A DNA stretch of 64,000 nucleotides from Eledone cirrhosa (lineage: Eukaryota): the NCBI GenBank assembly GCA_964016885.1, contig OZ024740.1, forward strand, positions 177,444,001 through 177,508,000, written 5' to 3'. Below the pieces are notes generated by a model. It was not told the origin of the DNA and did no database searches. It saw only the letters and a program-made list of their open reading frames with translations. Below are positions 11,119-51,955 of this stretch, in pieces. The stretch's first letter is position 1. Each line of letters begins with the position of its first letter. Made by a program: the position numbers and the translations under genes.

Positions 11119-11282
11119 AGGAAAATGTTCAAGACCCCGACGGCAGAGCTCAAGCTGTCGAAACGGCTTGAGCTCTGCCGTCGAGGCCTTGAACATTTTC
11201 CTATTACCCACTCTACTACCCAAAGTATTGAGTACTCTGGTGTGTTATGGTCCACCTGTTTCCTTACCACAGTTCCTTCGTT
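11119..11282 (+). mobile_element. Family-A foldback cassette in (TA)n
   Basis: Inverted arms ggaaaatgttcaag../..cttgaacattttcc; GAAACGGC..GCCGTC; tail with GAGTAC at 11230. Confidence 0.7.
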
Positions 11283-11364
11283 ATGTATATATATATATAT
11301 ATGTATATATATATATATGTATATATATATATATATATATATATATATATATATATATATATAT

Positions 11365-11552
11365 AGGAACAAGTAAGACCCCGACGGCTGAGCTCAAGCT
11401 GTTTCGACGGCTAATTCCAGAATTAGCCGTCGAAACGGCTTGAGCTCAGCCGTCGGGGTCTTACTTGTTCCTATTACCCACTCTACTACCCTAAGTATTG
11501 AGTACTTTGGTGCGTTATGGTCCACCTGGTTCCTTACCACATTTCCTTCGTT
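11365..11552 (+). mobile_element. Family-A foldback cassette in (TA)n
   Basis: Palindrome of about 108 bp (11365-11472) centred near 11418, plus an 80-nt tail with GAGTAC at 11500. Confidence 0.75.
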
Positions 11553-11804
11553 ATATATATATATATATATATATATATATATATATATATATATATATAT
11601 ATATATATATATATATATATATATATATATATTTATATTTATATATATATAATAATAATAATAAATTTGAAGACTAAAATCCAAAGAGGGCTCGATAAGG
11701 ATAAATGTATATCAAATATATAAGAACCGTAGAGCAAATATTTATTAAAATAAGTTTAATCTGTTATTTTAATCTGTTAATCTGTTATTTTAATATATAT
11801 ATAT

Positions 11805-12070
11805 TAGGATTGGTACTCTGAAATAACGATGTATACATGAATGTATGTATAGTATATGTGGCAATATACCTTACGTTTAATTAAAAACATTTAGACCATA
11901 CGTTATCGGTTTTAAAGTAGTGACTATTTCACTTCTTTTCGGCGAAAGAAGGGAGAGAAGCTCACAGTCTGTTTCACGCTGGTTGGCGTTCATCAGAGCC
12001 ACGTATTCCGCAAGGGTAGTACGTGGCTCTGATGAACGGTATATTGCCAAATATACTATACATACATTCA
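11805..12070 (-). mobile_element. Penelope-like cassette with hammerhead (11959-12000, minus) and an internally deleted inverted arm
   Basis: Minus: ggct-CTGATGA-acgc-caacca-gcgt-GAAA-CAGACTG-TG-agct; tail ttatttcaGAGTACcaatcctaa resembles that of 41601-41996. Confidence 0.65.
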
Positions 12071-12396
12071 TATATATATATATACATAGATATAATACGT
12101 ATGTATAAATGTGTATGGGCATATATGATACATGTATATGTATGATTGTATATATATATATATATATATATATATATATACACACTCATACATATATACA
12201 AATATATTCATAAGCCCTCATATTACTACACTCACTTGATCCATACCGTACAAGGAAAAACACAACCCAAACATGAATTTCAGAACTATGTCCCATTCCT
12301 GGCGGAATTTCATCTAAAAGAATGTCAGTTGCATAGAAATTTTTGGCAAACTCACGTCCAAATCAAATAATTGAATCTCAAACTTCAGATTGTGAA

Positions 12397-12515
12397 AGCG
12401 CATGGCTTAGTGGTTAGAGCATTGGGCTTGCAATCGAAAGGTTGTGAGTTCAATTCTCGGACCGGGTGATGTGTTGTTTCCTTGAGCAAAACACTTTATT
12501 TCACGTTGCTCCAGC
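12397..12515 (+). mobile_element. tRNA-derived SINE family S2, 5' part
   Basis: gcgcatggcttagtggttagagc (A box) and gagttcaattc (B box); also at 27425, 42540 and 21300 (minus). Confidence 0.8.
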
Positions 12516-13684
12516 TGGGATGATAGGACTGGGGTCCCTCTCATTAAAATCACCCAAGACACCTCCAACGAGATATACCTTGGAGGAGACCAGCTAAACC
12601 TGCATAGCTGTGAGCTGTCACACACAAACTTCAGATTCTGTTGAGGACGTCGACACAAAACTAATGGTAAAGTTTACACATATATATGCCTTCAATAAAT
12701 AAGTCAGTATGGAAGTTGAGACCATTCGTATCCCAATGATGAAATTGTGAAAGTTTAGAAACACTGCTGGTGAAGTTAGGCACTTTATTGTTATATGGAG
12801 TGTGCAAAGGAATCATATAAAAGAACCTTAGGAAAACCGATAAAACTGGAACATAGTCTTGTTTTTATGATAATGGATAAAGAAATCAATTTCTCATATA
12901 TATATGACTATATACATATACTTTGTATATGCATATATGCATGTTCACAACCACATCGTTAGGGGTTCATTCCTGGTGTGCTTTCTACCATAACCTTGGT
13001 TTAAGTAATGCCGAGTGAGAGGAATATTGTAAACAGAAAATGCATAAGTCCGTAGAATCTCTCTCTCTCTCCCAATATATATATATATATATAATATTAT
13101 AGAGTAAAATGACAGAAGGCCGGACTGGTTGAATTCCTTCAATTATTTATTTCTGCAAACACTATGCACTATTCATTGGCCAGGTTACGTATCAATCTGG
13201 TGACATCATCAGTAGTTATATACCAAAGGAATGATGGTAAACACATTACAAGAAGCTTAACGAAAAAAGCAGAGAAGTTTGAAATGTGCAAAGTATTTAC
13301 AGAAATAAATAATTGAAGAAATTCAACCTGTCAGCACTCATTTTACTCTGTAATATAATATTTAACTCCGTTCCCGCACCACTAGCAGGATTCAACATCA
13401 ATGAGGGGTGAGTTGCGTACCATCGAGTGCTTTCTTACAATTACATCATGATTAACATTGCAGGACGACCAATTCTACCCAGTGTTGAAACACCAAATTT
13501 AAACGTATATATATATATATATATATATATATATATATATATATATATATATATATATATATATATATATATATATATGTATATATATATATATACGTTT
13601 AAATTTATATATATATATATATATATATATAATTATTATATATATATATATATGTATATAATTTTTATATATATATATATATAT

Positions 13685-49945: not shown

Positions 49946-50121
49946 CGGCAGTATCGGTAGAGGGTTGGATGCCATGCTTTCTAGCATAGTTACGTCCCTT
50001 TACGGACTGAGTTCAAATCCCGCCGAGGTTAACTTTGCCTTTCATCTTTACGGGGTCGATAAAATAAAGTACCAGTAATGTACAGGTAATTGCTGGCCTT
50101 GTGCCTAAAGTAGAAACAATT
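49946..50121 (+). mobile_element. SINE family S1
   Basis: Matches 10640-10831. Confidence 0.85.
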
Positions 50122-50209
50122 ATTGTACTGATTTTAGATTTATGACTACGGCCGTGCAGCAGCAACATTATCGTTTATATATATATATATATATATATAT
50201 ATATATCAT

Positions 50210-51030
50210 TCTCGTGTCCCCTTTATTTACGTGTCCCAACGACTTTTTTTAGCCGTTGCTCGCACCAACCGGAGGTATATGGTCTTTAAAGCGAAGAAAT
50301 ACCGATGATGGTTGGAAGATCACTGATGAAGGACTAACTTTATTCATATGTAACCCATTAGCAACCACGCAGCACGTTTATTCTCATATTTACACATATT
50401 TCTTCTCCCGCTGTGACCCGTCTATTTCGTTCTTACTGCTTCCTCTTTCTCTGTATCTTTACCCTCTCTAACAGTCACTATCTCTGTTAGCCTCTTCCTC
50501 ACCCTTCACTCAATCACTCTCTGTTACTACCTCTCCTCCTCCTCCTTCTTCCCGTTTGACCTGTGCGTAATTCTTTTCTTTCGCACCCTTGGTCAGGCAG
50601 GTTCGCTTTTTTTTCTCTTTCTCGTCTACGATTTCACAGAACTTACGTTCACCGAATTCACAGACTAGATTCCTTCTCCTCCCGTTAGACCTGTACGGAA
50701 TTCCTTCCTTGCTCACATTCCAACCAGGTTTGATGGTCTTTATTCTCTCTCGTTCACGATTTCACCGGAAATTTCATGGAAATTTGGGACTTGACTCCTT
50801 CTTCCTCACCTTTCGTTGCTTCACCATCTTTGTTTGTTTACACTCTCGTGTCCCCTTTATTTACGTGTCCCAACGACTTTTTTTAGCCGTTGCTCGCACC
50901 AACCGGAGGTATATGGTCTTTAAAGCGATGAAATACCAATGATGGTTAGAAGATCACTGATGAAGGACTAACTTTATTCATATGTAACCCATTAGCAACC
51001 ACGCAGCACGTTTATTCTCATATTTACACA
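50210..51030. mobile_element. Non-coding element of about 820 bp with 187-bp direct terminal repeats, between (TA)n and (CA)n
   Basis: 50210-50396 and 50844-51030 are near-identical; pyrimidine-rich 447-bp interior. Confidence 0.8.
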
Positions 51031-51154
51031 CACACACACACACATACACACACACACACACACACACACACACACACACACACACACACATATATATATA
51101 TATATATATATATATATATATATATATATATATATATATATATATATATATATA

Positions 51155-51443
51155 AAAGAAGAAATTAAAAAAGTTCCATATATTTTATTATGCGTATTTC
51201 GAAAATAAGATCATCTTGGGACGAAAATTGTGTTCTCATCAGATAAAATAAGGTAACATGATGAGAACGCAATTTTTGTTCCAGGATGATGTTGTTTTCG
51301 AAATACGCATAATAAAATATATGGAACTTTTTTAACCATCTTTTAATTTCTTCTTTAATATATACTCCAGTCCTACCAACTGTTGAGTGCTACTTATCTG
51401 ATATATGCATAGTTTTATTGTTCTACAATATTACTCACCTTCT
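51155..51443. mobile_element. Foldback cassette with hammerhead (51183-51248 minus; decayed plus copy 51258-51317)
   Basis: Minus: ttttat-CTGATGA-gaa..ttc-GAAA-T-ACGC-A-TA|ataaaa; 6-bp stem I; tail GAGTGC at 51385. Confidence 0.72.
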
Positions 51444-51694
51444 ACACACACACACACACACTGATATATATAAATATATATATATATATATATATATATA
51501 TATATATATATATATATATATATATATATATAAAGGATTTAGATCTATGTGCGATGATTTCGATCTCTCTGCCTACAGCATACTCGATGGATCATTCTGG
51601 GCCAACATATGAGTTAAATTGTTGCAAGGCAACAGTCCCAGAGGCCGCATCCCATGCCGGAAAGGAGAGAAAGATTGATGATTCAACAATATAT

Positions 51695-51955
51695 ATATAG
51701 TTAGAAAGTGAACAACACAAAATATAATTACTCCATTACCAAAGGTTTCTGTATCCATCAGACAGAGATGCTATGGATAACAAATATAACATCTCTGTCT
51801 GATGACCGATCCAGGCGTATATGAATATTGTCTGGGATACAGAAACCTTTGGTAATGGAATAGTTATATTTTGTGTTGTTCACTTTCTAATTAAATAGCT
51901 CTGTTCTATACATAGAGCACTCTTTTTTCCTTTGCTTTTCCTTCGGAATTACCTA
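51695..51955 (+). mobile_element. Foldback cassette with hammerhead (51794-51859)
   Basis: tctgt-CTGATGA-stem II-GAAA-CC-TTT-GG-TA|atgga; the inverted arm 51695-51775 lacks the stem II interior; tail GAGCAC at 51915. Confidence 0.68.

Follow-up and report, generated by a model that had tools for sequence, protein, structure and literature searches.

We describe a short sequence word, GAGYRC, and the hairpin to which it belongs, in a 64-kb stretch of the genome of Eledone cirrhosa (assembly GCA_964016885.1, contig OZ024740.1, positions 177,444,001 to 177,508,000 of the forward strand). This whole stretch is called the window, and its positions are counted from its first letter. The window is AT-rich, belongs to a 3.0-Gb animal genome and contains 72 TA microsatellites as called by our own caller. 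One shape is common in these (TA)n: a long inverted repeat is followed, on one side only, by unique sequence, the tail, which extends up to the next (TA)n. Such a cassette consists of a tail-less inverted 5'-truncated copy, a forward copy and then the tail, which is the classic insertion shape of Penelope. Penelope-like elements (PLEs) are telomerase-related retrotransposons. We found that GAGYRC is a real signal in these tails: GAGY forms the 3' side of a bulged hairpin, and RC is the two bases that follow.

A preliminary description of the window had pointed out GAGYRC in the tails of otherwise unrelated cassettes. Its 11 exact sites and its two near-matches (GAGTAT at 37377 and GGGCAC at 4790) are all correct. 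As it had also stated, the word is often preceded by TT (7 of the 11 sites; the rest have TC once, TA once and CA twice), and wherever a fold-back is present the sites fall in the one-sided tail beyond the arm, that is, in the segment absent from the inverted arm. Two further tail copies had been missed, one in family A (4916-4921, minus) and one in the second copy of family D (14381-14386, minus). The distance to the microsatellite had been given as 10-85 nt; measured from GAGY to the (TA)n stretch it is 8-108 nt, with a median of 60. The cassettes are unrelated only in part, since the sites at 11230 and 11500 belong to one family, as do those at 11813 and 41978 and those at 13425 and 22975, and several tails also have a common ACTCY block at their start. 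The sites are as follows.

11210-11235, plus: family A, copy 1; hairpin at 11210-11233 (ACTC, 4-bp inner stem, 6-nt loop, TT bulge, GAGT), GAGTAC at 11230-11235; fold-back arms 11117-11155 and 11166-11204, tail 11205-11285.
11480-11505, plus: family A, copy 2; hairpin at 11480-11503, GAGTAC at 11500-11505; fold-back arms 11363-11417 and 11420-11474, tail 11475-11551.
4916-4937, minus: family A, copy 3, newly found; hairpin at 4918-4937, GAGTAC at 4916-4921.
21835-21855, minus: family B; hairpin at 21837-21855 (ACTC, 3-bp inner stem, 3-nt loop, TT bulge, GAGT), GAGTAC at 21835-21840; fold-back arms 21861-21908 and 21922-21969, tail 21794-21860.
13425-13430, plus: family C, copy 1; GAGTGC with a TC bulge and ACTC at the tail start; inner stem decayed, no strict hairpin.
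22919-22980, plus: family C, copy 2; hairpin at 22919-22978 (5-bp inner stem, 40-nt loop, TT bulge), GAGTAC at 22975-22980; fold-back arms 22483-22698 and 22700-22915, perfectly complementary, tail 22916-23057.
13767-13795, minus: family D, downstream copy of the direct terminal repeat of the element at 13688-14483; hairpin at 13769-13795 (5-bp inner stem, 7-nt loop, TT bulge), GAGTGC at 13767-13772.
14381-14409, minus: family D, upstream copy of the repeat, newly found; hairpin at 14383-14409, GAGTGC at 14381-14386.
22065-22093, minus: family E; GAGCGC at 22065-22070, GCTC 23 nt upstream, TT bulge; inner stem weak (3 pairs, 2 of them G-U), fails the strict descriptor.
51364-51390, plus: family G; hairpin at 51364-51388 (4-bp inner stem, 7-nt loop, TT bulge), GAGTGC at 51385-51390; fold-back arms 51165-51241 and 51259-51335, tail to 51473.
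51898-51920, plus: family H; hairpin at 51898-51918 (outer pair G:C, GCTC...GAGC; TA bulge), GAGCAC at 51915-51920; fold-back arms 51701-51756 and 51835-51890, tail 51891-51955.
11813-11818, minus: family F; GAGTAC in a 27-nt tail with CA before it; no RCTC partner and no bulged hairpin.
41978-41983, plus: family F, second copy; GAGCAC in a 32-nt tail with CA before it; no bulged hairpin.
37377-37382, plus: near-match GAGTAT in a diverged copy of family B; fold-back 37227-37351.

GAGYRC as one half of a bulged hairpin

GAGYRC occurs 59 times in the window, 29 times on the plus strand and 30 times on the minus strand. When the 100-nt flanks of the TA microsatellites were examined (n=144), the word was found reading toward the microsatellite in 16 flanks and away from it in 11, and the random 100-nt rate of 0.040 predicts 5.8 (Poisson P = 3e-4 for the toward flanks). 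An independent sample of 100 random 10-kb stretches of the same genome, 1 Mb in total, was drawn to avoid testing the word on the data that had suggested it. Among its non-simple flanks (n=874), 88 carry the word toward the microsatellite and 47 away from it, where about 30 are expected from a random rate of 0.034. Both enrichment and strand bias over background are thus present, but the bare hexamer is enriched only about 3-fold and its bias is weak after clustering. We also analyzed 27 representative tails oriented by their fold-backs, using 200 dinucleotide shuffles. GAGYRC is found on the forward strand of 14 tails and on the reverse strand of 7, and in the shuffles it averages 0.80 tails and never exceeds 4. 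Of the 27 tails, five had been chosen manually, and the word is present in four of them; leaving these five out, the count is 10/22. Patterns with a G+C of at least 3 never reached 14 tails in the 200 shuffles, whereas AT-rich patterns often did. The same unbiased count also recovered the 5' strand of the hairpin, as RCTCTR and ACTCYR were each found in 12 tails.

When tails were folded one by one by minimum free energy, a shared structure emerged only once the upstream ACTC had been recognised. In the folded tails, GAGU pairs with ACUC at the very start of the tail. The architecture is RCTC, an inner stem directly adjoining it, a loop of between 3 and about 60 nt, the other side of the inner stem, a 2-nt bulge whose first base is T, and GAGY; the TT before the word is this bulge. 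Among 76 context groups, GAGT has an upstream ACTC in 24 and only GCTC in 4, and GAGC goes with GCTC in 8 against 6. Seven of the 11 sites listed in the preliminary description lie in strict hairpins, two in weak or decayed ones (13425 and 22065, the latter on the minus strand) and two, both of family F, in none.

We then counted hairpins with a strict descriptor, tightened after a loose version yielded many false matches. Matches in the 1-Mb sample were classed as lying at most 120 nt upstream of (TA)n and reading toward it, as reading away, or as elsewhere, and expectations came from mononucleotide shuffles in 60-nt blocks. Toward (TA)n there are 67 matches in 38 sequence groups where shuffles give 4.5 +/- 2.2, a 15-fold excess. 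There are 13 matches reading away (shuffle 3.6 +/- 1.6) and 78 elsewhere (shuffle 75 +/- 9). The toward class is far above its expectation and the elsewhere class is at chance, and therefore the excess is confined to one strand beside the microsatellite. When the outer pair was scored without demanding R:Y, 37 toward groups had A:T in 16, G:C in 17, A:C in 3 and G:T in 1 (Fisher P = 1.3e-6). The first bulge base, on which the descriptor made no demand, is T in 34/37 toward groups and in 21/60 elsewhere. GAGYRC completes a strict hairpin in 18/54 groups near (TA)n and in 8/444 elsewhere (P = 2e-13); the corresponding window groups number 6/14 and 0/34. In an alignment of 20 families, six of the nine pairs change on both sides, with 48 cells against 13.9 +/- 4.0 in shuffles (0/500), and the compensatory changes affect the outer pair and the three inner pairs adjoining it. 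The preliminary description had proposed a cross-family cis-element. Such an element exists and lies on the hammerhead (sense) strand; rather than a linear hexamer it is a covarying bulged hairpin, of which the hexamer forms half.

Hairpin position and the autonomous Hydra-type element

The cassette shape, a tail-less inverted copy joined to a forward copy with an extension at one end, was found in 87 oriented cassettes of 27 families in addition to the fold-backs of the window. Eight families have a strict hairpin in the tail, and in seven of them its start lies 3-7 nt beyond the end of the arm, the point at which the tail-less inverted arm stops. Neither the forward arms nor the opposite strand of the tails contained a strict hairpin in the 27 families. 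Hammerhead-like cores (CTGATGA...GAAAC) were recognised by eye in families B, C, F and H, and in several cassettes the hairpin lies tens of bases downstream of such a core. Most copies are fold-backs and not tandems. The window gave no match at the gathering score of Rfam, hammerheads included, and no hammerhead is among the best 150 of the 229 matches found by E-value. Nearly all of these 150 are microRNA families, placed mostly on the hairpins of microsatellites and fold-backs; such matches could seed false microRNA annotation in this genome. Family A is without the CTGATGA half of the hammerhead, yet it keeps the hairpin and has thousands of young copies: a genome search gave more than 2000 first-look candidates, and the scored full-length matches are 97-100% identical. 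The 44 family A cassettes of the sample cluster together, and the copies shown (window 11363-11551, loci L001-L030) are alike in arm length and sequence. Therefore, the whole fold-back seems to be copied as a unit and not formed anew at each insertion. The 216-nt arms of the fold-back at 22483-22915 (family C), with 1 nt between them, are 100% complementary, so that this copy is very recent or its arms are kept identical.

The hairpin is also present in an element that encodes a protein. One sample locus (L112) is a fold-back with the hairpin and GAGCAC in its tail and contains a GIY-YIG reading frame. Searched against the genome, this frame had 60,493 first-look candidates; identity was 95-100% in each of the 150 matches that were scored. 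The open frames of these matches reach 927-979 aa, and several are 927 aa long (L161:2279-5059, L162, L164). The Hydra-type PLE is thus an unusually large and young family here. The 927-aa frame at L161:2279-5059 contains RWK, DKT, YRDD, CxCX5C, VIY...HYIG (GIY-YIG), CxxC and CxH, a set that is diagnostic of the Hydra clade (PMC8557442). YRDD lies in the middle of the protein and VIY...HYIG about 100 residues before the stop, that is, a C-terminal GIY-YIG domain follows the reverse transcriptase (RT). The N-terminal motifs, RWK and DKT rather than DKG, can be read in the translation as VRWKAY and TSDKTKK. By eye, the linker and endonuclease show CNCRDRGRC, CDLC and CTH, with one Cys between VIY and HYIG and CCHH absent, and the protein resembles the published Hydra alignment block by block (PMC8557442). 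The protein had no hit in sequence searches of Pfam or the PDB. Its nearest Atlas clusters (GIY-YIG, HTH_animal, DUF8422 and RVT_1) are PLE-like and serve as a lead only.

A full copy of the autonomous element reads, in order, 3' untranslated region (UTR), end point 1, six bases, hairpin 1, the rest of the tail, end point 2, hairpin 2 and open reading frame (ORF). Hairpin 1 has a long loop and ends in GAGCAC, end point 2 is a short TATAT, and hairpin 2 consists of GTGCTC, a short loop, a TA bulge and GAGCAT. Copies end at reference positions 474-475 (n=20), 6 nt before hairpin 1, or at 638 (n=24), 4-9 nt before hairpin 2; three copies read through. In the printed rows of the 44 copies that stop at these points, AT-repeat sequence comes next, which fits insertion into (TA)n. 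The autonomous element is also found with an upstream partial copy and an inverted arm. The comparison with autonomous PLE tails that the preliminary description had suggested thus gave a positive answer, as the word and the hairpin are present both in the tail of this element and in published Hydra consensi.

Other retroelements also lie in (TA)n. A second PLE lineage, with the canonical CX4CxxC linker, has members in the window cassette at 34879-35701 and at L078:6216-7403, L064, L108 and L118:6582-6800. BLASTP between the two Penelope-like lineages gave no match. Copies of this second lineage stop at ...ACAATAT or 56 nt further on, so that a 56-nt tail is optional, and this tail may form an analogous bulged hairpin with the outer stem GTTT/AAAC, judged by eye. 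An APE-RT-PHD long interspersed nuclear element (LINE) in (TA)n was considered as a partner and rejected, since it ends in (TGA)n and GAGYRC is present in the 3' UTR of 0/7 copies. In six of its seven copies (L102, L048, L118, L119, L034, L077, L128), (TGA)n stands directly before (TA)n. A LINE frame at 29548-32514 (plus) in the window, with an APE endonuclease and an RT in Pfam, resembles L073 and is separate from the APE-RT-PHD family. LINE and PLE copies both lie beside (TA)n, and therefore TA microsatellites collect several retroelement classes. The window also contains tRNA-like short interspersed nuclear elements (SINEs) and a 232-nt tandem repeat of SINE-like units (10700-10830, 12390-12500, 42540-42560, 60631-61209).

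Comparison with known systems

3' stem-loops are common to LINE/SINE partners, and these stem-loops and the R2 3' UTR are recognition signals for reverse transcriptase. The hairpin described here would work in a similar way, as a conserved RNA structure that lies near the start of copying and is borrowed by non-autonomous elements. It differs in that the RT is telomerase-like and carries a nuclease of the GIY-YIG type, in that initiation would be internal and in that the putative signal is present twice.

The closest relatives belong to the Hydra clade of PLEs (Craig et al. 2021, PMC8557442, with supplementary File S7). According to that paper, PLE insertions favour microsatellites, with (TA)n as the target of the Hydra clade, and consist of pseudo-LTRs (LTR, long terminal repeat) beside which lies an inverted copy truncated at its 5' end, with a tail of 30-40 bp at one end. 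The element of E. cirrhosa shares the (TA)n target, the terminal repeats, the inverted 5'-truncated copy and the one-sided tail, and its protein has the RWK, DKT and CxCX5C motifs of the clade. It is about 3.3 kb long, whereas the clade is given as 'generally under 3 kb', and its 3' region differs from that of Hydra-1_Obim, the consensus of which ends without a tail. In the File S7 consensi we recognised by eye the order GCTC, stem, loop, stem, a TT, TA or TC bulge and GAGCAC. This hairpin lies about 35 nt before the 3' end in Hydra-2_Amil from a coral and near the 3' end in Hydra-2_Ajap from a sea cucumber. It is found twice in front of the ORF in Hydra-1_Ajap, also from a sea cucumber, and in an imperfect version in Hydra-1_Crog. 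It was not seen by eye in the consensi of Hydra-1_Amil or Hydra-1_Obim in the same file. The published Hydra-1_Crog consensus opens with GCCC...GGGCAC, which is perhaps a variant outer stem. The tail of family K has GGGCAC in place of GAGYRC; in this family (window 53285-53642 and 4643-4842), the inverted arm keeps a long tail and the forward copy stops early. The words hairpin, stem-loop and initiation are absent from the main text of PMC8557442, so that the bulged hairpin is undescribed there, and our full-text literature searches found no paper that describes it.

A biochemical precedent comes from another clade. Purified Poseidon protein of the green anole cuts and extends both DNA strands, and it initiates reverse transcription within a stem-loop of the RNA, at two internal positions that bound the tail (PMC11167929). 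The Poseidon hammerhead needs the protein to cut, and earlier work cited in the same paper indicates that the tail of Drosophila Penelope is needed for recognition and cleavage by its own endonuclease (PMC11167929). Poseidon_Ac, studied in 2024, and the element described here are alike in that each has a tail bounded by two discrete 3' end points. Under the mechanism proposed below they would also share the cutting and extension of both target strands, and a structured RNA at the start site with the protein-binding region 3' of the start. The differences are the clade and the RNA element. In Poseidon, this is an AC-rich stem-loop inside the ORF, whereas here it is an RCTC/GAGY hairpin that lies in an untranslated region, is present twice, is known from genomic sequence alone and is common to many non-coding families.

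The non-coding families can be compared with animal non-LTR retrozymes, described as non-autonomous derivatives of PLEs (Li, Clavereau and Pollet 2026 preprint, 10.64898/2026.07.22.740005). These are short non-coding repeats with hammerhead motifs that depend on PLEs, as the present families would, and they are linked to PLEs through the similarity of terminal repeats and hammerheads. In contrast, the families described here are mostly fold-back stubs in (TA)n, the tail hairpin is what they share, and family A is without a full hammerhead core.

The hairpin as a candidate start signal

Taken together, the GAGYRC hairpin probably opens the tails of Hydra-clade PLEs and of their non-coding passengers in (TA)n, and there it would set the start of reverse transcription. 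A role in RT recognition or initiation is likely, as it fits both the position of the hairpin, 3-7 nt behind the end point, and the precedent of Poseidon (PMC11167929). The mechanism is inferred from the Poseidon analogy and from the fixed spacing seen here. In this mechanism, the Hydra-type protein would bind the bulged hairpin on the template RNA and begin cDNA synthesis immediately 5' of this hairpin. Tail-less ends would then arise from the inner start site and tailed ends from the outer one. Both cut target strands would prime on the RNA, which would produce the lopsided fold-back with an inverted and a forward copy, and the non-coding families would persist by keeping the hairpin. The wider claim, that Hydra-clade RTs from corals to octopus-like molluscs load and start at the twin RCTC/GAGY hairpin, that dozens of protein-less families have copied it and that its two starts create both the long-unexplained tail and the fold-back, stands for us at even odds.

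Several observations weigh against these readings. At the level of the word, the four hexamers in the clustered 1-Mb flanks are found in only 38 clusters toward the microsatellite against 26 away, and they are outside the 30 most strand-biased hexamers; this hexamer-by-hexamer test missed GAGYRC because unrelated flanks dilute the element. The RC after GAGY is present in only 19/38 hairpin groups, the others having GAGCTW, GAGTCA and the like. Family F has the word without the hairpin, and the tails of window families I, J, K and L are without the word. At the level of the hairpin, the strict form is present in the tails of only 8/27 fold-back families. The pairedness of the 20-family alignment is partly circular, because the descriptor that chose the sequences demands four of the nine stem pairs, and the count of 11 G-U against 15 A-C pairs does not tell which strand folds. 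As to mechanism, no second hairpin was seen at the outer end of the non-coding fold-backs, which abuts (TA)n; priming in the adjoining (UA)n of a read-through transcript may be enough to produce this end. No non-coding family was linked to a particular autonomous element, and the second PLE lineage (L078, L064, L108) was rejected as a partner because its 3' end and its tail are without GAGYRC.

Among the alternatives, an improbable one is that the GIY-YIG endonuclease recognises the hairpin, or the tail around it, in the form of DNA, during homing or the resolution of an insertion intermediate, and that the hairpin is no RNA signal for the RT. The need of the Drosophila Penelope endonuclease for its tail (PMC11167929) would fit this, and the G-U and A-C counts are neutral as to the folding strand. 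However, covariation that preserves pairing points to a folded single strand and not to a duplex site, the insertions enter (TA)n and not tails, and the element is strand-specific relative to the end points. We likewise consider it unlikely that a conserved RNA structure has another job, such as transcript stability, export, hammerhead folding or 3'-end formation, and that its nearness to the ends is incidental. The location of the hairpin downstream of hammerhead-like cores and the dependence of the Poseidon hammerhead on protein (PMC11167929) speak for such a job. In contrast, family A keeps the hairpin in thousands of young copies without the CTGATGA half, and the spacing to the end points is tight both in the fold-back families (3-7 nt in 7/8) and in the autonomous element (6 and 4-9 nt).

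A leftover of common descent, in which the hexamer is the slowest-decaying patch of one ancestral PLE end and is under no selection, is a still poorer account and quite unlikely. Families A and B are indeed alike in their tails beyond the word, as are G and the L061 family and the copies of C, and many families are young. Against this, the outer pair and the three adjoining inner pairs show compensatory changes, outer pairs and bulge stay fixed while the loop varies in length between 3 and 60 nt, and the same architecture is present in coral and sea-cucumber consensi. Chance, that is, a degenerate hexamer picked post hoc in AT-rich flanks, is exceedingly improbable and can be regarded as refuted: the 59 copies in 64 kb, the 11 window flanks that carry the word reading away, the weak bias of clusters and the AT-rich patterns that match the raw count in shuffles would agree with it, but the word replicates in the independent 1 Mb (88 against about 30 expected), the hairpin exceeds block shuffles 15-fold on one strand only, its outer pair covaries as R:Y, and completion of the hairpin by GAGYRC is much commoner beside (TA)n than in other places (P = 2e-13).

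What is added here is the tie between the hairpin and the GAGYRC hexamer, the limits of that hexamer, and a very abundant and young Hydra-type partner. The copying of PLEs is known from a single in vitro study, made in another clade. A small covarying hairpin a few bases behind each insertion end is a concrete and mutable candidate for the signal that positions the RT. If this is true, it would explain both the tail and the mobilisation in trans of many unrelated non-coding families. In addition, the hairpin is an annotation marker for the orientation and the true ends of PLE-type elements inside microsatellites.

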